Positions 13,185-22,044 of a DNA stretch of 64,000 nt are shown here, in pieces. The notes below the pieces were generated by a model. It ran no database searches, was not told the DNA's origin, and saw only the letters and a program-made list of their open reading frames with translations. Made by a program: the position numbers and the translations under genes. The stretch lies in NCBI RefSeq assembly GCF_036507355.1, contig NZ_AP027877.1; one strand, given 5' to 3'. The DNA comes from Escherichia coli. Lineage in GTDB: Bacteria; Pseudomonadota; Gammaproteobacteria; Enterobacterales; Enterobacteriaceae. Numbering within the stretch: the first letter of the stretch is position 1; each line of letters opens with the position of its first letter.

Positions 13185-14828
13185 ATGTTGAAGCGCCTAC
13201 TAAAAAGACCCTCTTTGAATTTACTCGCCTGGCTATTGTTGGCCGCTTTTTATATCTCTATCTGCCTGAATATTGCCTTTTTTAAACAGGTGTTGCAGGC
13301 GCTGCCGCTGGACTCGCTGCATAACGTACTGGTTTTCTTGTCGATGCCGGTCGTCGCCTTCAGCGTGATTAATATTGTCCTGACACTAAGCTCTTTCTTA
13401 TGGCTTAATCGACCGCTGGCCTGCCTGTTTATTCTGGTTGGCGCGGCTGCACAATATTTCATAATGACTTACGGCATCGTCATCGACCGCTCGATGATTG
13501 CCAATATTATTGATACCACTCCGGCAGAAAGTTATGCGCTGATGACACCGCAAATGTTATTAACGCTGGGATTCAGCGGCGTGCTTGCTGCGCTGATTGC
13601 CTGCTGGATAAAAATCAAACCTGCCACCTCGCGTCTGCGCAGTGTTCTTTTCCGTGGAGCCAATATTCTGGTTTCTGTACTGCTGATTTTGCTGGTCGCC
13701 GCACTATTTTATAAAGACTACGCCTCGTTGTTCCGCAACAACAAAGAGCTGGTGAAGTCCTTAAGCCCCTCTAACAGCATTGTTGCCAGCTGGTCATGGT
13801 ACTCCCATCAGCGACTGGCAAATCTGCCGCTGGTGCGAATTGGTGAAGACGCGCACCGCAACCCGTTAATGCAGAACGAAAAACGTAAAAATTTGACCAT
13901 CCTGATTGTCGGCGAAACCTCGCGGGCGGAGAACTTCTCCCTCAACGGCTACCCGCGTGAAACTAACCCGCGGCTGGCGAAAGATAACGTGGTCTATTTC
14001 CCTAATACCGCATCTTGCGGCACGGCAACGGCAGTTTCAGTACCGTGCATGTTCTCGGATATGCCGCGAGAACACTACAAAGAAGAGCTGGCACAGCACC
14101 AGGAAGGCGTGCTGGATATCATTCAGCGAGCGGGCATCAACGTGCTGTGGAATGACAACGATGGTGGCTGTAAAGGTGCCTGCGACCGCGTGCCTCACCA
14201 GAACGTCACCGCGCTGAATCTGCCTGGTCAGTGCATCAACGGCGAATGCTATGACGAAGTGCTGTTCCACGGGCTGGAAGAGTACATCAATAACCTGCAG
14301 GGTGATGGCGTGATTGTCTTACACACCATCGGCAGCCACGGTCCGACCTATTACAACCGCTATCCGCCGCAGTTCAGGAAATTTACCCCAACCTGCGACA
14401 CCAATGAGATCCAGACCTGTACCAAAGAGCAACTGGTGAACACTTACGACAACACGCTGGTCTACGTCGACTATATTGTTGATAAAGCGATTAATCTGCT
14501 GAAAGAACATCAGGATAAATTTACCACCAGCCTGGTTTATCTTTCTGACCACGGTGAATCGTTAGGCGAAAATGGCATCTATCTGCACGGTCTGCCTTAT
14601 GCCATCGCCCCGGATAGCCAAAAACAGGTGCCAATGCTGCTGTGGCTGTCGGAGAATTATCAAAAACGGTATCAGGTTGACCAGAACTGCCTGCAAAAAC
14701 AGGCGCAAACACAACACTATTCACAAGACAATTTATTCTCCACGCTATTGGGATTAACTGGCGTTGAGACGAAGTATTACCAGGCTGCGGATGATATTCT
14801 GCAAACTTGCAGGAGAGTGAGTGAATGA
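13185..14828 (+). CDS. eptA: Lipid A phosphoethanolamine transferase EptA (PmrC)
   Basis: ORF 13140..14828; start placed at [14 protein letters not shown], giving 547 aa; sulfatase-like domain; stop overlaps basR start. Confidence 0.93.
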
Positions 14829-15493
14829 AAATTCTGATTGTTGAAGACGATACGCTGTTATTGCAGGGACTGATTCTGGCGGCGCAAACCGAAGGCTACG
14901 CGTGCGATGGCGTGACAACCGCGCGGATGGCGGAACAAAGCCTTGAGGCAGGTCATTACAGCCTGGTGGTACTGGATTTAGGGTTACCCGACGAAGATGG
15001 ACTGCATTTTCTCGCCCGTATCCGGCAGAAAAAATATACCCTGCCGGTACTGATCCTCACCGCTCGCGATACGCTGACCGACAAAATCGCCGGGCTGGAT
15101 GTCGGTGCCGATGACTATCTGGTGAAGCCTTTTGCGCTGGAAGAGTTACACGCCCGTATCCGCGCCCTGCTACGACGCCATAATAATCAGGGCGAAAGTG
15201 AGCTGATTGTTGGCAATCTGACGCTGAACATGGGTCGCCGTCAGGTATGGATGGGCGGTGAAGAGTTGATTCTGACGCCCAAAGAATATGCTCTGCTGTC
15301 ACGGTTAATGCTCAAAGCAGGCAGTCCGGTGCATCGGGAAATTCTCTACAACGACATCTATAACTGGGACAATGAACCCTCGACCAACACCCTGGAAGTG
15401 CATATCCACAATCTGCGCGACAAAGTGGGCAAAGCCCGTATCCGCACCGTGCGCGGCTTTGGCTATATGCTGGTCGCAAATGAGGAAAACTAA
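14825..15493 (+). CDS. basR: Response regulator BasR (PmrA), OmpR family
   Basis: 222-aa ORF; receiver domain plus winged helix; 4-bp overlap with eptA. Confidence 0.95.
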
Positions 15494-15502
15494 TTGAATC
15501 TG

Positions 15503-16594
15503 ATGCGTTTTCTGCGCCGACCAATATCGCTGCGCCAACGGCTGATATTGACCATCGGGGCCATTTTGTTGGTGTTTGAGCTGATCAGCGTCTTCTGGCT
15601 ATGGCATGAAAGTACCGAGCAGATTCAGCTGTTTGAGCAGGCGCTACGCGACAATCGCAACAACGATCGCCACATCATGCGTGAGATCCGCGAGGCGGTC
15701 GCCAGCCTGATTGTCCCCGGCGTCTTTATGGTCAGCCTGACGCTATTTATCTGCTATCAGGCGGTACGCCGCATCACCCGCCCGCTGGCGGAGCTGCAAA
15801 AAGAGCTGGAAGCGCGCACCGCCGACAACTTAACGCCCATTGCCATTCACAGCGCCACCCTCGAAATCGAAGCGGTGGTTTCGGCGTTGAACGATCTGGT
15901 CAGTCGCCTGACCAGCACGCTGGATAACGAAAGGTTATTTACCGCTGACGTCGCGCACGAACTGCGAACGCCACTGGCGGGGGTGCGTTTGCATCTGGAA
16001 CTGCTGGCGAAAACGCATCACATTGATGTAGCACCGTTAGTGGCACGGCTTGATCAGATGATGGAGAGCGTCTCCCAGCTGCTGCAACTGGCGCGTGCCG
16101 GACAGTCATTTTCTTCCGGTAATTATCAACATGTAAAACTGCTGGAAGATGTCATTCTCCCCTCGTATGACGAACTCAGTACCATGCTCGACCAGCGCCA
16201 GCAAACCCTGCTATTGCCAGAGAGCGCCGCCGACATCACCGTTCAGGGTGATGCAACCCTGCTGCGGATGTTATTGCGAAATCTGGTAGAAAATGCCCAT
16301 CGTTACAGCCCGCAAGGCAGCAACATTATGATTAAGCTGCAAGAAGATGGCGGAGCGGTCATGGCCGTTGAAGATGAAGGACCGGGTATTGATGAGAGTA
16401 AATGCGGGGAGTTGAGTAAAGCGTTTGTACGAATGGACAGCCGTTATGGCGGGATTGGTCTGGGGTTAAGTATTGTCAGCCGCATTACACAGTTGCATCA
16501 CGGGCAGTTTTTCCTGCAAAACCGGCAAGAGACTTCTGGCACGCGCGCCTGGATACGGCTGAAGAAAGATCAGTACGTGGCAAACCAGATATAA
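15503..16594 (+). CDS. basS: Sensor histidine kinase BasS (PmrB)
   Basis: ORF begins at a TTG at 15494; ATG at 15503 (MRFLRRPISLRQ) gives 363 aa; HAMP/HisKA/HATPase architecture. Confidence 0.93.
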   Translation: MRFLRRPISLRQRLILTIGAILLVFELISVFWLWHESTEQIQLFEQALRDNRNNDRHIMREIREAVASLIVPGVFMVSLTLFICYQAVRRITRPLAELQKELEARTADNLTPIAIHSATLEIEAVVSALNDLVSRLTSTLDNERLFTADVAHELRTPLAGVRLHLELLAKTHHIDVAPLVARLDQMMESVSQLLQLARAGQSFSSGNYQHVKLLEDVILPSYDELSTMLDQRQQTLLLPESAADITVQGDATLLRMLLRNLVENAHRYSPQGSNIMIKLQEDGGAVMAVEDEGPGIDESKCGELSKAFVRMDSRYGGIGLGLSIVSRITQLHHGQFFLQNRQETSGTRAWIRLKKDQYVANQI

Positions 16595-16659
16595 AGAAAG
16601 CTGCTGACCACCAGCACGCTGAACACGGTAGTTAAACTTTCATAAACACGGTTTTTCAT
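16570..16659 (-). CDS. pmrR: Small membrane protein PmrR (29 aa), antisense to the 3' end of basS
   Basis: Reverse strand translates to MKNRVYESLTTVFSVLVVSSFLYIWFATY*; not in the ORF track because it is below the size cutoff; overlaps the last 25 bp of basS. Confidence 0.85.
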   Translation of the reverse strand: MKNRVYESLTTVFSVLVVSSFLYIWFATY

Positions 16660-16773
16660 TGCACTCTCCTCCGTTAACCTGGAGGAGAGTATGCGCGTCA
16701 GAGATTAAGTGAACCTTAAGAGTTCAATTGTTGGTCTGATAAGACAGCGTCACATCAGGCCATCCGTTTCAGC

Positions 16774-18276
16774 TTATTCATCAATTCGCGGATGTTGCTG
16801 CACCAGGCGGGTACGTTTCGCCTGCAAATCGGCAATCTCGTGGTCAATATCATCGATTTTCTGCTCGATATTATCGTAATGCTCGACGAGAATTTCCTTC
16901 GCTTCCTGTATATCTGACGCCGCCGGTGTTGCACCTTTCAACGGACGATTTGCCGTCTCTTTCATGGTTACGCCGGTGATTAAACCAACCACCGCCACTA
17001 CCATCAGGTAATAGGCTGGCATCATCAGATTCTGCGAGCTTTCGACCAGCCAGGCCGCCAGTGTTGGCGTCAGACCGGCAACCAGCACCGAAATATTAAA
17101 TGCCGCCGCCAGCGCGCTGTAACGGATATGCGTCGGGAACATCGCTGGCAAGGTAGAAGCCATAACGCCCGTAAAGCAGTTAAGGATCACCGCCAGCATC
17201 AGTAACCCGGCAAAAATCAGGCCGATGACGTTACTGTTAATCAGAATAAACGCCGGGATCGCCAACACAAACAGGGCAACACTACCAAGTAGCACAAACG
17301 GACGACGGCCAAAACGGTCACTCAGCAAGCCCATCACCGGCTGGACAAACAGCATACCGATCATAATGGCGATAATAATCAGCACCCCGTGGTCTTCGGA
17401 GTAATGCAGGTTATGCGACAAATAACTCGGCATATAGGTCAGCAACATGTAGTAAGTCACGTTGGTGGCAATTACCAGACCAATACATGTCAACAGGCTG
17501 CGCCAGTATTTAGTGGCAATCTCTTTAAACGAGACTTTCGGGCCATCCTGCAAACCTTCGCGGTCGCCCTGTTCCAGTTTTTCAACATGCTGCTGGAACG
17601 CCGGAGTTTCTTCCAGCGCATGGCGCAGGTAAAGCCCGATAATCCCTAACGGCAGAGCAATAAAGAACGGAATACGCCAGCCCCAGTCGAGGAAGTTCGC
17701 TTCGCCGACAATGGTCGAAATTAACACCACCACGCCCGCACCCAGCACAAACCCGGCAATAGAACCGAAGTCCAGCCAGCTGCCCATAAAGCCACGTTTA
17801 CGGTCAGGGGAGTATTCCGCAACAAATATCGACGCCCCGGTATATTCACCGCCGACCGAGAAACCTTGTGCCATCTTACAGATCAACAGCAGAATCGGTG
17901 CCCAAATACCAATCGTGTCGTAGGACGGTATTAAGCCAATACAGAACGTACTGATCGACATAATCACAATAGTGATAGCGAGGATCTTCTGGCGACCATA
18001 TTTATCGCCCAACATACCAAAGAAGAGCCCGCCAAGCGGTCGAATCAGAAAGGGAACGGAGAACGTGGCAAGTGCAGCAACCATCTGCACGCTGGGGTCA
18101 GCCCCCGGGAAAAAAACTTTACCTAATGCGTAAGCAACAAAACCATAAACACCAAAATCGAACCATTCCATTGCATTACCCAGTGATGCTGCGGTAATGG
18201 CTTTACGCAGTTTACCGTCATCAATAATGGTGACATCACGAAGGGTAATCGGTTTTACTTTTTTCCTTTTCAGCAT
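16774..18276 (-). CDS. proP: Proline/glycine betaine:proton symporter ProP (MFS)
   Basis: ORF 16774..18309; start placed at MLKRKKVKPITLRDV, giving 500 aa; C-terminal coiled coil. Confidence 0.93.
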   Translation of the reverse strand: MLKRKKVKPITLRDVTIIDDGKLRKAITAASLGNAMEWFDFGVYGFVAYALGKVFFPGADPSVQMVAALATFSVPFLIRPLGGLFFGMLGDKYGRQKILAITIVIMSISTFCIGLIPSYDTIGIWAPILLLICKMAQGFSVGGEYTGASIFVAEYSPDRKRGFMGSWLDFGSIAGFVLGAGVVVLISTIVGEANFLDWGWRIPFFIALPLGIIGLYLRHALEETPAFQQHVEKLEQGDREGLQDGPKVSFKEIATKYWRSLLTCIGLVIATNVTYYMLLTYMPSYLSHNLHYSEDHGVLIIIAIMIGMLFVQPVMGLLSDRFGRRPFVLLGSVALFVLAIPAFILINSNVIGLIFAGLLMLAVILNCFTGVMASTLPAMFPTHIRYSALAAAFNISVLVAGLTPTLAAWLVESSQNLMMPAYYLMVVAVVGLITGVTMKETANRPLKGATPAASDIQEAKEILVEHYDNIEQKIDDIDHEIADLQAKRTRLVQQHPRIDE

Positions 18277-18539
18277 AGCTTTCCTCGCAGAGTTGGCCCA
18301 TTTCCGCAAACGCCAGAAAAATCAGCGCGACGGCCGCAAAAGGGGAGCGGGAATTGCAGGATGCAATCTCTGTAACAAGCGTAGCGGGTTTGCTTACACC
18401 CTCCGGTTAAGGAATGTACAATCAAACCAGTTGACGCCTGAATTGGGCAGTTAATGACCTTTTTACCCTACCAGCGTTTAAATTTGTGATCAACTTCACA
18501 CATGAATTTCGTTTAGGACTCATTGATGTAACTGATTAT

Positions 18540-19418
18540 TTACACTAAATTTACAGAGAAGATTTCCTCGAGCATTGCCCCCGCCAGACGCTGCGCTGAA
18601 CAGAGTCGTGGCATCCCCAGCGCGACAGTTTGCCAGCGTTGGGTCACTGACCAGCAAACGGGTTGTTTATCTGCCGTGGTCCACTTTCCCAGCCAACTTA
18701 AAAAATCAGCATGATCCCCGCCCGTCGGAACGGTCGAAGAGGCAAACCACTGATGGTAATAGTGACGCGTGGTCGGGGCCGCATTGATACTCTCTGCCAG
18801 ATGTTGTGTCGCTTTCACGCGCAAATCACCCAGCAACAACGCCACCGCTTGCGGGCTTCCCAGACGGCAGGCATCGCCAAATGCCCCCCAACGCAACTCT
18901 TCGAGAACGATAAAACAGCGCCCAGGCAACGACCAGGCGTTATACGCCCCAGCACGCCAGCGGGTAAAAATTTGCTCGCTCTGTTCACCTGCCTGCACCA
19001 GTAGGCCCCGTTGCGTTAACGCCTTTTCCTTCCAGCGACAACGGGCTGAAAACCACTCATACAAGGCGGCAATTTGCTGGGGGAGCTCCGGGAAAGCAGA
19101 GTGCTGGCGGTGATCCATTTTTTGCAGCAGCGCCAGATGTTGCGCGATCTGCGTCAGTGCCAGATGACCGGGATCCAGCATCGACGCCAGTTTTTCCACC
19201 AATGTCAAACGCAGGCTAAGCGGCGCATTTAACATTCCGCCGTTCGCCCATGTCTGAAGCTGCACGCGCGCAAGAAGTTCCTGCATCAGTCGTTCACGAA
19301 ACTGCTGCTGATGGGCTTGTGGAAGGCGGGCATCATCGCCCTGCGCCAGATCCACTAAAAAGCGCGGATGAACCGACTCCAGCACGCGACCGGGGCCGTC
19401 CAGTAACGTCTTGGTCAA
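18540..19418 (-). CDS. yjcZ: Uncharacterised protein YjcZ, partner of CrfC
   Basis: 292-aa ORF; 4-bp overlap with upstream crfC (operon). Confidence 0.85.
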   Translation of the reverse strand: MTKTLLDGPGRVLESVHPRFLVDLAQGDDARLPQAHQQQFRERLMQELLARVQLQTWANGGMLNAPLSLRLTLVEKLASMLDPGHLALTQIAQHLALLQKMDHRQHSAFPELPQQIAALYEWFSARCRWKEKALTQRGLLVQAGEQSEQIFTRWRAGAYNAWSLPGRCFIVLEELRWGAFGDACRLGSPQAVALLLGDLRVKATQHLAESINAAPTTRHYYHQWFASSTVPTGGDHADFLSWLGKWTTADKQPVCWSVTQRWQTVALGMPRLCSAQRLAGAMLEEIFSVNLV

Positions 19419-21643
19419 TATCGTTCTGCCGTGAAAAGTGTTTGAATATCATCGCGTAACAGCTGGGCGTCGGTGTAAATCCAGCCGTGAGTCATCACAG
19501 TCTGCTGCAATTGCTGCTGCATCAGCCTGACCACCGATTCATTTTGTTGACGCAGAGCCAGACTTTCGCGTAAACGCGTCTGTAATTCCGTCAAACATGA
19601 AGCGAACTCAGCGAAAAAAGTATTCATGCCTGCCGTAACAGATTCATCGACCTGCTCTGCCAGAACTTTAGCCATTTGTTGGCAATAGAGATCGACTTCT
19701 GCGCTTAATGCTCGTTGCAACACACTGTAATCAACCGTTTCTGTCGGGGATTTCTCATTTCCCCGTCCCCAGTCGGGCTGATTCAACCAGCGCGAAAAAG
19801 TCTCACGCACAACGCCTAAACGCGTGCTCTGCTCGTCCGTTGCTTCCTGGCGCGAAATGACTTCACTGAACAGCTGGCGAGTGTTGAAGTGGGGAACTGC
19901 GCCGTGAAAAACAGGAAAATGAAACCCAGGACGAAACCCTGACTCGCTCAATTCCATTTTGATTTGTTGCTCAATGGGGCGAATAACATCGGTTAACACC
20001 CGGCAAAGGGTGGATTCCAGCTCGGCAAAACGCAGCGTAAAGTCGCGACTGATGGTGTTCTGCGCCGTCTGTAACAGTGTCTCACAGCGGGTACGAATCT
20101 CGCTTAACGGCTCCGAATCATCCTGAAACAACGCGGCTAACTGCGCATTCAGCGCATCTTGCTGTTGACGCAGAAAGAGGTTGGCGGAGGTCAGGGCCAG
20201 CTCGATTTCATGTTTAATCTCGCCGCTCACCTGCGCCTGATTGAGTTGCAATAGCTGCAAACTTTCTTCGACCTGATGGATATTTTGCCGCAATTGTTCA
20301 CAAGCGACGTTTAACCCGTGCGCACGAAAATCCAGGTATTCCCGCGCCTGCTGCGCGTAATTCAACAGTTTATGCGCGGCAGATCGCAGAGCATACAACG
20401 AGGCGTTAGCATAAGCGGCATGAAGCAACGCCTGAATTGGCTGGGCGAACAGCGAATCTTCCCACAACTGATCGGCAGCATGACGAATATGTTCGAGGTC
20501 CGCCAGATCGGCATGACGCCAGCGCCTGCCGAGCGCGGCATGGGCAAAATCTTCCACCCAGCGTTGTTGCTCTGGCGCTGGTAACTTACCGTTGTTGGCT
20601 AACTCATGGCGCGCCCGATTCGCCAGGTAGCCCCACATCGACGACACCGGAAATATCTGCTGTGGCGTAATACAGCCTTTCATCAGCGTTCCGGAAATCA
20701 GTGCCCGCACCTGGTCGGCGTCGTCACTGTTACGATCCTGTTGATCGAACTTATTGACCAGCACATACAGCGGCACCGATTGCCCCACCGCCAAAATCGC
20801 CTCACGGACCTCTTCATCGGAGATCGATTTCAGTTGCGTATAATCCAGCACCGCCAGTACCGCCGAGGCGCGTGCCAGCTGCTGGTTAAGCATTTTTTGC
20901 AGATGCGGTTGCCCGGCTTCATTTGGCCCGGGGGTATCCAGTAACGTCAACTGACCGGGATAACTCTCCAGCCCCGCCAGATGGACAAACTCCACTTCAA
21001 TCACGGGAATATGCTCAATGGCGGCGTAAGCAGAAAAAGGAAAATCGACGTCCAGCGCCTTCGCCAGTCGCACCAAATCATTCAAACTTTTCAGACAATG
21101 AAAAATAGGCTGGGCACCCAGATAATATTTTTCGAAAGCGACGCCATTTTCGATCCGCTGCATAAGCGCACGCATATCTTTATCTATTTCCAGCACATCG
21201 GTCAGATGCTTAATATCGCAATCACGCAGGCGCTGTTGTAATTTTTGAATTAAACAATCGATTGGCGCGACATGTGAAAAATGCAGTACCGGTTCCTTTT
21301 GCCCGGGCGTATGGCGAATAAGCGTCGGCAGGGCAGTCATTGGGCGATTGCGATTAGGCAGAACCTCCGTACCAACAATGGCATTAATGGTGGTTGATTT
21401 CCCTGCTTTCATAGTACCGACAATCGCCAGCACCATTTCCAGTTGGGAAATTTTACGCAACTCATTATTCAGCATCGCGTGACGCTCGGCGATATTAGGC
21501 TGACTCCAGGGTAAAGCCAGTTGTGGCGCATCGTCTCCGGGTACAGAGAGAGGCATTTTTTCCAGTAACTGCAACTGTTGGCGAGAAAGCTGTAACAGGC
21601 GTTCAGCCTCCTGACTTAACTCATACAGGGTCTGTGTGTACAT
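19415..21643 (-). CDS. crfC: Dynamin-like GTPase CrfC (YjdA)
   Basis: 742-aa ORF; P-loop GTMKAGKST near N-terminus; long coiled-coil-rich C-terminal part. Confidence 0.9.
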   Translation of the reverse strand: MYTQTLYELSQEAERLLQLSRQQLQLLEKMPLSVPGDDAPQLALPWSQPNIAERHAMLNNELRKISQLEMVLAIVGTMKAGKSTTINAIVGTEVLPNRNRPMTALPTLIRHTPGQKEPVLHFSHVAPIDCLIQKLQQRLRDCDIKHLTDVLEIDKDMRALMQRIENGVAFEKYYLGAQPIFHCLKSLNDLVRLAKALDVDFPFSAYAAIEHIPVIEVEFVHLAGLESYPGQLTLLDTPGPNEAGQPHLQKMLNQQLARASAVLAVLDYTQLKSISDEEVREAILAVGQSVPLYVLVNKFDQQDRNSDDADQVRALISGTLMKGCITPQQIFPVSSMWGYLANRARHELANNGKLPAPEQQRWVEDFAHAALGRRWRHADLADLEHIRHAADQLWEDSLFAQPIQALLHAAYANASLYALRSAAHKLLNYAQQAREYLDFRAHGLNVACEQLRQNIHQVEESLQLLQLNQAQVSGEIKHEIELALTSANLFLRQQQDALNAQLAALFQDDSEPLSEIRTRCETLLQTAQNTISRDFTLRFAELESTLCRVLTDVIRPIEQQIKMELSESGFRPGFHFPVFHGAVPHFNTRQLFSEVISRQEATDEQSTRLGVVRETFSRWLNQPDWGRGNEKSPTETVDYSVLQRALSAEVDLYCQQMAKVLAEQVDESVTAGMNTFFAEFASCLTELQTRLRESLALRQQNESVVRLMQQQLQQTVMTHGWIYTDAQLLRDDIQTLFTAERY

Positions 21644-22044
21644 AGAAAATTCTTCCTTAAAGCAAATTTTATTACTTTTATTTAGCCAGATTGTTTTTGA
21701 GTTCTGTTTTCGGCTTTTATAATTACTGCAAGAAATAATTTTATATTTAGAGTGTTGTTTTTTATTAGAATAAATAACATCTTCCGATACGTTTAAAACG
21801 TCAGAAAGATAAAAATATCATGTGAATTAAAAAAAGAACAAGTAGAGCATTAACCTTATCTTAAATAATAAATGGAGGCAAAAAGATTATTTTCTTTTTG
21901 CGTTTCCTTTCAAATGAAAACGATCGTCGTCTAAAATCAGCAGTACCCCCGACAAACTCAGGGATTTTGTGTATAATTGCGGCCTTTTTCGGCAATCTGC
22001 CGTTTTTTGGCGCTTTTGCCCTGCTGACTTTTGAGGAAATCCAC

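Follow-up and report, generated by a model that had tools for sequence, protein, structure and literature searches.

The locus lies on the minus strand of a 64,000-nucleotide stretch of Escherichia coli DNA (contig NZ_AP027877.1 of assembly GCF_036507355.1), the whole of which is referred to here as the window. It holds two genes. The first, crfC (also known as yjdA or rdcA; 19415..21643), starts with ATG and encodes a dynamin-like GTPase of 742 amino acids plus stop; the second, rdcB (yjcZ; 18540..19418), starts with TTG and encodes 292 amino acids plus stop. As read from the sequence, the stop and start codons overlap by 4 nt (T-TGA / TTG-A, 19415..19418, minus strand), i.e. crfC ends in cga tat TGA and the TTG of rdcB begins on the last T of tat. 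The RefSeq boundaries in a 99.4%-identical genome, as well as the 4-nt overlap, are identical to those of the open reading frames (ORFs) in the window. RefSeq names the 742-residue gene crfC and gives the yjcZ product as 'diguanylate cyclase regulator RdcB family protein'.

Judged by their sequences, both ORFs are real genes, because Pfam Dynamin_N, Pfam YjcZ and the NCBIfam CrfC equivalog all match. Dynamin_N covers residues 72-277 of CrfC (3e-18; 66.8 bits, cut-off 27), the equivalog NF007368 covers residues 1-742 of 742 (1592.1 bits, cut-off 1146), and PF13990 (YjcZ) matches RdcB over profile positions 1-272 of 272 (7.6e-145; 481.7 bits, cut-off 27). RdcB also keeps the YjcZ-family signature around E174-L-x-W-G-x-F-G181, and its residues R167, W177, G181, R185 and R277 are conserved in the family. 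The earlier note had identified the genes as crfC-yjcZ, with the sizes and the overlap given above; Pfam, the NCBIfam equivalog and the RefSeq names agree with this identification, and the ORFs and the sequence confirm the sizes and the overlap.

The pair was present in 5,417 of the 5,426 complete E. coli genomes (99.8%), and the DNA identity of the locus to nearly all E. coli genomes is 95-99%. The allele of the window was matched at 99% identity or more in only 50 of the 5,419 matching records, so the allele comes from a less-sampled lineage. The locus is thus an ordinary core operon of E. coli, rdcA (crfC/yjdA)-rdcB (yjcZ), which is already known and not new. Compared with RdcA and RdcB of E. 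coli K-12 (Pfiffer, Sarenko, Possling & Hengge 2019, PMC6510439), the genes, the locus and the lengths (742 and 292 amino acids) are the same, the functional residues and the intragenic FliA promoter are shared, and we see no substantive difference. As it was flagged, the locus changes nothing; what is gained is the correction of the label 'partner of unknown function'.

The earlier note had described CrfC as a protein with an N-terminal, dynamin-like P-loop GTPase domain and long helical regions, and this description holds. Besides the Dynamin_N match, all four GTPase motifs are present in the sequence: the G1/P-loop (76-GTMKAGKS-83, including Lys82; codons at 21395..21418, minus strand), the G2 catalytic threonine Thr103 (21335..21337, minus strand), G3 (236-DTPG) and G4 (297-NKFD). 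The alignment of dynamin-like proteins (DLPs), which comprised 37 sequences from both two-gene and three-gene operons, showed G1 to be invariant (37 of 37), as well as Thr103. An AF2 model of CrfC (pLDDT 79.1, pTM 0.65) predicts long helices at residues 414-505, 513-566, 639-700 and 702-741. When this model was compared with the PDB using Foldseek, all of the top 50 matches belonged to the dynamin superfamily with probability 1.00, among them SynDLP (6.8e-12), IniA, BDLP, mitofusins, Drp1 and LeoA (4aur). The structure prediction that had been proposed as a check therefore returned a dynamin-like fold. The global TM-scores are just 0.2-0.3, since the domain orientations differ. SynDLP (7zw6), IniA (6j72), BDLP (2j68/2j69) and Campylobacter DLP1/2 (5owv/5oxf) share with CrfC a GTPase domain followed by a helical-hairpin stalk, although the sequence identity is only 12-16%. 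In contrast to the structurally characterised bacterial DLPs, E. coli CrfC lacks the paddle-like tip, and its partner is a small all-alpha protein rather than a second DLP.

The tip of the stalk is conspicuous in the alignment. The gaps fall after residues 508/512 of CrfC, and in the model they map to the turn that joins helix 414-505 to helix 513-566 (residues 506-513; 20105..20128, minus strand), where about 32 amino acids have been deleted specifically in Escherichia. At the same position the DLPs of three-gene relatives bear an insert that is basic and amphipathic, rich in F, L, G and S. Alignment and model together suggest that the stalk tip of Escherichia CrfC carries no membrane-binding element of the paddle, PH or TM type. 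RdcA/CrfC has been described as soluble or as devoid of a membrane-binding motif, and GTPase activity and homo-oligomers have been reported for it (PMC6510439, PMC6374313).

With respect to expression, the DLP and YjcZ genes retain an overlap of -4 or -1 nt in most of the 49 related loci that we surveyed. This conserved stop/start overlap suggests that the two genes were already translationally coupled in their ancestor. The earlier note had likewise proposed translational coupling. Besides coupling, rdcB expression has a second route, since a FliA (sigma-28) promoter inside crfC drives rdcB separately. A pattern search located this promoter in codons 658-667 of crfC (19644..19670, minus strand; TAAAGTTCTGGCAGAGCAGGTCGATGA). 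The sequence TAAAGTTCTGGCAGAGCAGGTCGATGA is identical to the '(yjdA)yjcZ' FliA site mapped by ChIP-seq (Table 2 of Fitzgerald et al. 2014, PMC4183435), and through this identity the rdcAB locus can be placed under FliA, i.e. flagellar-regulon, control. The yjcZ RNA amounts to 52 in the wild type and 1 in a fliA deletion (PMC4183435), and a reporter confirms the FliA-dependent activity of the intragenic site (bioRxiv 10.1101/188474). It is the sole match to the sigma-28 pattern at the locus. A second match elsewhere in the window (35244-35270, plus strand) is at chance level, with 0.6 matches expected and two or more found in 13 of 100 shuffles.

The crfC promoter presumably lies in the AT-rich stretch (21644..22044; GC down to 0.41) that separates crfC from the divergently oriented yjdM. 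A ribosome-binding site, AAGGAAG, lies 7 nt ahead of the crfC ATG, and a sigma-70-like site with 10 of 12 matches is found upstream of the gene on the minus strand (21913..21886). No sigma-28 consensus was found within 3 mismatches in 21644-22044, in line with the conclusion of Fitzgerald et al. that a FliA promoter predicted earlier upstream of yjdA was wrong (PMC4183435).

What the two proteins do together is best known from signalling by cyclic di-GMP. Both RdcB and RdcA are genetically required for activating the diguanylate cyclase DgcE, and knockouts of rdcA, rdcB and dgcE phenocopy each other in a non-additive manner (PMC6510439). In two-hybrid assays RdcA binds the MASE1 domain of DgcE, itself and RdcB, with no direct contact detected between RdcB and DgcE; the K82A variant of RdcA is active, whereas T103D is inactive and loses both the binding and the activation of DgcE (PMC6510439). 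An independent genome-wide transposon screen from 2026 recovered rdcA, rdcB and dgcE, all three as low-c-di-GMP mutants (PMC13031359). Motility is unchanged in a single deletion of yjcZ (PMC4183435). In the window both genes are intact, and K82, T103 and G1-G4 are all kept.

We consider it highly probable that the RdcA-RdcB pair, a soluble GTPase with its tightly bound partner, is a nucleotide-state switch that activates the membrane cyclase DgcE, an enzyme of biofilm signalling, a model that rests on genetics and bacterial two-hybrid data, no reconstitution with purified proteins being reported in the cited papers. According to the published mechanism, RdcA would dimerise or oligomerise and bind RdcB, and would be inactive with GTP bound. 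GTP hydrolysis, or a drop of the GTP pool at the entry into stationary phase, would then allow nucleotide-free RdcA to dock on the MASE1 domain of DgcE. The docking would promote dimerisation of the PAS3/GGDEF part of DgcE and thereby the synthesis of c-di-GMP. By way of PdeR-DgcM-MlrA this second messenger would act on csgD (curli, cellulose), and by way of YcgR it would act on the flagellar motor. The dgcE gene is located about 2 Mb from rdcAB in E. coli and hence outside the window. RdcB itself was modelled as an all-alpha protein with AF2 (pLDDT 91.7), and the comparison of this model with the PDB gave no informative match and no solved relative. Within the switch, we infer that RdcB tunes the GTPase cycle, either by stimulating GTP hydrolysis or by promoting nucleotide release. 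The earlier note had called the role of the YjcZ partner poorly defined; this no longer applies at the level of the pathway, given its part in DgcE activation (PMC6510439, PMC13031359), but it remains a fair description of RdcB biochemistry.

Ozaki et al. reportedly described CrfC in 2013 as a clamp-binding dynamin-like nucleoid partition factor. What Taniguchi et al. [quoted passage not shown] The main role of the protein might thus be to bind the beta clamp, hold sister forks and position nucleoids, with YjcZ as an accessory. In favour of such a role, after which the NCBIfam equivalog is also named, CrfC oligomers are reported to bind the clamp, mutants with a crfC deletion or Q41A to give anucleate cells, and the protein to localise to nucleoid poles (PMC6374313). 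However, QLALP was found nowhere outside E. coli proper. In the remaining Escherichia the sequence reads PLTLP and so lacks the essential Gln, in other genera it reads V(L/H)PL(H/K)F, and none of the 93 clusters (about 784 amino acids) from other genera has the clamp motif, whereas all of these groups keep the gene pair, the GTPase core and the synteny. In addition, the CrfC paper (PMC6374313) mentions YjcZ 0 times in its main text. Pfiffer et al. point out that clamp binding is GTP-independent, that many of the in vivo experiments on CrfC relied on expression from plasmids and that the knockout grows at an undiminished rate (PMC6510439). Since the motif is restricted to E. coli while the module is conserved and much older, clamp binding is more likely a recent extra than the reason for the module. 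We regard it as improbable that clamp binding is the main role; it probably arose recently and in E. coli only. The proposed functions of CrfC and RdcA are different, and the restricted distribution of the motif bears on the debate between them.

The wider distribution of the family was investigated by a YjcZ genome scan with a 24-sequence alignment of the distant branch, the 66-sequence alignment being too diverse. In each of the 49 species loci the YjcZ homologue is immediately preceded by a DLP sequence; 46 of these loci are intact, 1 is cut by a contig end, 1 is a pseudogenised pair and 1 is truncated. The same holds for metagenomic contigs wherever the upstream gene is on the contig. The co-conservation of the pair, which had been named as a check, is thus well supported. 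All 27 two-gene species loci, which belong to the Enterobacteriaceae, are syntenic with yjdM and proP; in the window, too, the locus lies between these genes and proP is the next gene after rdcB. Given the synteny with yjdM, proP and phn, the flanks of the two-gene form are housekeeping genes. Among the species loci surveyed, no rdcAB was found in Salmonella or Klebsiella, an apparent absence, and just two singleton clusters labelled as Salmonella were found elsewhere. Among 50,697 phage genome records there was no YjcZ-family match.

The core pair is nested within a wider family whose other arrangement has three genes, DLP-YjcZ-patatin. This three-gene form occurs in 2,606 of the 5,426 E. coli genomes (48%). 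It shares with the core pair a homologous DLP (about 30-36% identity) with the invariant G1/G2 core, a homologous YjcZ-family protein (about 23-30% identity), the gene order and the stop/start overlaps. It differs in having a third gene, which encodes a patatin whose GxSxG is intact, and in its DLP, which is about 800 amino acids long and bears the stalk-tip insert. It also differs in its setting, being accessory and mobile, whereas the pair is core and stays at one site across the 27 Enterobacteriaceae species loci: the three-gene operons are found in tRNA-linked CP4-like islands and on 44 plasmids, and adjoin restriction, BREX, DISARM and PDC genes. Transcriptomic work from 2026 suggests the trio as a putative defence system (PMC12922286). 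Literature searches for a defence system that combines dynamin and patatin turned up no validated one, just this transcriptomic suggestion and a passing island annotation. In the window, a tblastn search with four patatin queries found no patatin or patatin relic downstream of rdcB.

Eleos (LeoA/LeoBC) is said to be a dynamin-type anti-phage system described by Millman et al. in 2022. The core pair has in common with Eleos and with LeoABC of ETEC a dynamin-superfamily GTPase, LeoA (4aur) being among the structural matches mentioned above, but it lacks a second dynamin-like gene and a defence-island context, and its YjcZ-family component is absent from Eleos. PADLOC gave partial matches of CrfC to LeoBC (1.1e-05, 22.8 bits) and LeoA (2.4e-05, 21.6 bits) in the GTPase domain. 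With matches this weak and no paired dynamin-like gene, the pair was not assigned to Eleos. In the 2023 version of PADLOC, YjcZ of E. coli went unmatched, as did the distant form, and the catalogue thus contains neither the pair nor the trio.

The earlier note had framed the pair in terms of membrane remodelling and protection against phage and had proposed a survey of its association with defence islands. That the core crfC-yjcZ is itself a membrane-remodelling or anti-phage module, like DynA of Bacillus subtilis or Eleos, seems very improbable to us: the dynamin-like fold, the weak PADLOC matches and the closest wider relatives, i.e. patatin phospholipase operons in defence-rich islands labelled as putative defence systems (PMC12922286), speak for it, but the pair occupies a single syntenic proP-yjdM site in almost every E. 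coli genome and no island, the window holds no patatin, other effector gene or relic, the paddle-like insert of the relatives is deleted, both literatures report a soluble protein or one without a membrane-binding motif, YjcZ is unmatched in PADLOC, and the published phenotypes are signalling phenotypes. The framing thus does not fit the locus, and the locus does not lie in a defence island.

The descent of the core pair was examined with a neighbour-joining tree of the DLPs; as it was midpoint-rooted without an outgroup, its root is uncertain. The two-gene clan was recovered in 200 of 200 bootstraps, and so was its grouping with a three-gene DLP. With this fairly good support, the pair probably goes back to an ancestor with three genes, DLP-YjcZ-patatin, from which the phospholipase gene and the membrane element at the stalk tip were lost. 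Combining this with the DgcE switch, we tentatively suggest, as a possible but doubtful joint reading, that rdcAB is a domesticated, effector-less descendant of a membrane-acting mobile trio, in which YjcZ served as an adaptor and the GTPase switch was co-opted. The ancestral trio would plausibly have acted in abortive infection or another kind of anti-phage defence. YjcZ, as adaptor or regulator, would relay the nucleotide state of the GTPase to an effector, which would be the phospholipase in the mobile form and DgcE in the Enterobacteriaceae. If this were so, second-messenger signalling would have taken over a GTPase switch of immune type. Apart from this reading, the survey offers a comparative handle on the job of RdcB, i.e. 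GTPase regulator versus effector adaptor, in that a YjcZ-family protein accompanies the DLP wherever the family occurs, usually together with a patatin on mobile islands. It also draws attention to the trio as a common accessory operon of E. coli with a putative function in phage defence.

The pair of genes is the already known RdcA/RdcB (CrfC/YjcZ) operon in an ordinary core-genome setting. On the minus strand, crfC (yjdA, rdcA; 742 aa, 19415-21643) begins with an ATG preceded by AAGGAAG, and rdcB (yjcZ; 292 aa, 18540-19418) begins with a TTG. The two frames share four nucleotides (19415-19418, minus strand) at the junction tat-TGA, where the last T of tat opens the TTG. The same gene boundaries are found in the RefSeq annotation of a 99.4%-identical genome. 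The crfC-yjcZ naming, the sizes and the overlap in the earlier note are all correct. CrfC has a Pfam Dynamin_N match (3e-18) and scores 1592 bits against the NCBIfam equivalog 'clamp-binding protein CrfC' (cut-off 1146), and RdcB matches Pfam YjcZ over its full length (7.6e-145). The gene order is adiC-eptA-basRS-proP / rdcB-crfC / yjdM-yjdN-phnC..., and the 3.6-kb crfC-rdcB region (window 18300-21900) is present in 5,417 of 5,426 complete E. coli genomes, annotated as crfC and 'diguanylate cyclase regulator RdcB family protein'.

Among 5,419 E. coli records that match this region, 5,365 are 95-99% identical to the present allele and just 50 reach 99% or more; the window therefore represents a comparatively rare or less-sampled lineage, or its allele of this region is divergent. 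Its CrfC retains G1 (76-GTMKAGKS-83, including K82), T103, G3 (236-DTPG), G4 (297-NKFD) and 41-QLALP, and as far as the sequence tells, the allele fits the known RdcA/RdcB system. Some E. coli assemblies also encode Dynamin_N and YjcZ in a single chain at about 97% identity (P0020-P0022, 438-442 aa, and P0288, 672 aa; P0020 represents 40 sequences and P0021 was found on 13 contigs). They seem to have arisen from crfC-rdcB by in-frame deletion or fusion.

The genes yjdA/yjcZ were renamed rdcA/rdcB by Pfiffer et al. in 2019. In that study, macrocolony matrix, CsgD, curli and c-di-GMP were affected alike and non-additively by deletion of rdcA, rdcB or dgcE, the last encoding a membrane diguanylate cyclase. 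In two-hybrid assays RdcA showed self-interaction and also bound RdcB and the DgcE MASE1 domain, and RdcA was the sole partner of RdcB. RdcA K82A, which does not bind GTP, was fully active and T103D, which does not hydrolyse it, was inactive and lost DgcE binding; nucleotide-free RdcA is therefore regarded as the activator and GTP as inhibitory, with the GTP drop on stationary-phase entry proposed as the input signal and RdcB left as a candidate for either a GTPase-activating or a nucleotide-release factor (PMC6510439). [quoted passage not shown] The description of the partner's role as poorly defined thus holds at the biochemical level only, since activation of DgcE has been published (PMC6510439, PMC13031359).

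Under the name CrfC, this protein has also been studied by the Katayama laboratory: it binds the beta clamp via 41-QLALP and aids nucleoid partition, and the Q41A change abolishes clamp binding (PMC6374313). Of the 13 clusters retrieved in the 742-aa class, 11 have the motif (residues 41-45; 21509-21523, minus strand), and the remaining two (P0280, P0282), which come from other Escherichia lineages and are 88-89% identical, have PLTLP without Gln41. In the class of about 784 aa from other genera (P0287-P0387) the motif is missing in 93 of 93 clusters, with unrelated residues in its place. QLALP is confined to E. coli proper and the module is much older; clamp binding can therefore be no more than an addition specific to E. 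coli. The restriction of the motif lends comparative support to Hengge's 'moonlighting' view (PMC6510439).

A sigma-28 pattern search gave a match within crfC (19644-19670, minus strand; codons 658-667) that is identical to the FliA site '(yjdA)yjcZ' mapped by ChIP-seq (Fitzgerald et al. 2014, PMC4183435). That paper reports a fall of yjcZ RNA from 52 to 1 upon fliA deletion, and declares the FliA promoter formerly predicted upstream of yjdA wrong (PMC4183435); the intragenic site is active by reporter (bioRxiv 10.1101/188474). There are therefore two routes to rdcB, read-through from crfC and a promoter of its own about 225 nt upstream. No obvious Shine-Dalgarno sequence is visible before the TTG, and on the FliA transcript no ribosomes come from the crfC start, nor do any arrive from upstream unless translation begins internally; the first in-frame ATG past the promoter is Met673 (19625-19627). 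A second sigma-28-like match (35244-35270, plus strand; TAAAGTTTACTACCGCGCGGACGATTA) has two mismatches. The window holds no more such matches than chance would give, and the part of Table 2 of Fitzgerald et al. that was covered lists no FliA site nearby (PMC4183435), so this one is probably fortuitous.

An AlphaFold2 model of CrfC was built from a 37-sequence alignment (pLDDT 79.1, pTM 0.65). Besides an N-terminal helix and the alpha/beta GTPase domain, it shows four very long helices (414-505, 513-566, 639-700 and 702-741). The top 50 Foldseek matches in the PDB were all dynamin-superfamily proteins, SynDLP being the best (6.8e-12), followed by IniA, BDLP, mitofusins, Drp1, dynamin-1, LeoA, Campylobacter DLP1/2, Mgm1 and MxB, each with a probability of 1.00. 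Global TM-scores were just 0.2-0.3, as expected for hinged domains that differ in pose. The dynamin-like fold claimed earlier is borne out by the model.

Co-conservation of the pair proved to be strong as well. When 1.84 billion cluster representatives were searched exhaustively, 197 proved to belong to the YjcZ family, with identities down to about 22%. In a scan of one genome per species, 49 loci carried a YjcZ homologue, and sequence homologous to the dynamin-like protein (DLP) lay immediately upstream in all 49, of which 46 were intact and one was cut by a contig end (L032). The remaining two were a decayed pair of frameshifted pseudogenes at the syntenic site in Enterobacter sp. EA-1 (L062, 6324-9491) and a cyanobacterial locus of Scytonema tolypothrichoides (L054, 8457-10975), in which the DLP is reduced to its C-terminal ~230 aa and the downstream YjcZ and patatin genes are intact. 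Most loci keep the overlap between stop and start codons (-4 or -1 nt), and the metagenomic loci are concordant wherever the contig includes the upstream gene.

The loci take two forms. In 27 species loci there is no downstream patatin; the hosts all belong to the Enterobacteriaceae (Enterobacter, Cedecea, Leclercia, Kosakonia, Phytobacter, Siccibacter, Citrobacter-labelled, Atlantibacter, Franconibacter) and the position is that of E. coli, with a divergent yjdM upstream in 27 of 27 and proP downstream where the contig extends. In the other 22 species loci (Pseudomonas, Chromatiaceae, Comamonadaceae, Gallionella, Pantoea, Erwinia, Budvicia, Methylococcales, a cyanobacterium and Escherichia albertii) a patatin of about 355 aa follows directly, usually overlapping, and synteny is not shared. 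A patatin is also present in every sampled metagenomic sub-cluster with an annotated downstream gene, and GxSxG and the Asp-Gly near residue 223 are kept in 26 of 26 patatins examined. The flanks of the three-gene loci hold WYL proteins (6), integrases (4), BrxC, DrmD, JukA/B, type I and III methyltransferases and the candidate defence families PDC-S08, PDC-M09A and PDC-M27C.

Within E. coli, a paralogous operon of dynamin family protein, RdcB-family protein and patatin-like phospholipase occurs in 2,606 of 5,426 complete genomes, in up to five places per genome (e.g. 14001-18366 in both L063, O103:H2 12009, and L064, strain 88_1577; E. albertii has it at L027 6581-10946). It is cargo of tRNA-Ile-linked CP4-like islands, with a YeeP-type GTPase gene on one side and the DUF932 / antirestriction / RadC / YeeU-CbtA backbone on the other. 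Among plasmid records, 44 carry it, including 16 conjugative ones; no phage record does. A January 2026 paper describes it as the gene set with the strongest induction in MP1 lysogens of Kapi1, where it adjoins EcoKI and Druantia, and names it as a putative defence system that shares about 30% identity with core RdcAB (PMC12922286). PADLOC (2023) gave zero matches for YjcZ, and our literature search found no paper validating a DLP-YjcZ-patatin defence system.

The G1/G2 core is essentially invariant over both forms. In the neighbour-joining tree the two-gene DLPs form a single clan that joins the Budvicia three-gene DLP (each in 200 of 200 bootstraps), and under midpoint rooting this clan is nested within the three-gene diversity. 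The simplest reading is that in an ancestor of the Enterobacteriaceae a copy became fixed at the yjdM-proP site and its patatin gene was lost, the rooting without an outgroup being the weak point of this reading. That the RdcA/RdcB pair descends from a mobile DLP-YjcZ-patatin system has fairly good support. The fuller reading, in which that mobile ancestor was putatively defensive and YjcZ proteins would couple the GTPase to an effector, is a tentative one that we would place on the doubtful side. The defence framing suggested earlier for crfC-rdcB does not apply at the present locus, a known operon in the core genome.

The forms also differ at the predicted stalk tip. After residue 508, about 32 aa that every homologue has are missing from Escherichia CrfC (columns 520-640 of the DLP alignment A4); in the model this site (20105-20128, minus strand) forms the turn that links the two longest helices. 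Three-gene DLPs have 55-75 additional residues there, i.e. a Lys/Arg-rich run and then a short Phe/Leu/Gly/Ser-rich segment (e.g. SGFAEIFASLIGTL, RGFLAIFSSFLNS), whereas the two-gene relatives outside Escherichia have about 36 residues without this segment. The paddle of BDLP is a membrane-binding element. By analogy, the basic and amphipathic insert looks like a putative paddle-like, membrane-binding element that would have been lost stepwise. Such a loss fits the description of RdcA/CrfC as soluble (PMC6510439, PMC6374313), and also the MASE1 domain of DgcE serving as the membrane anchor of RdcA.
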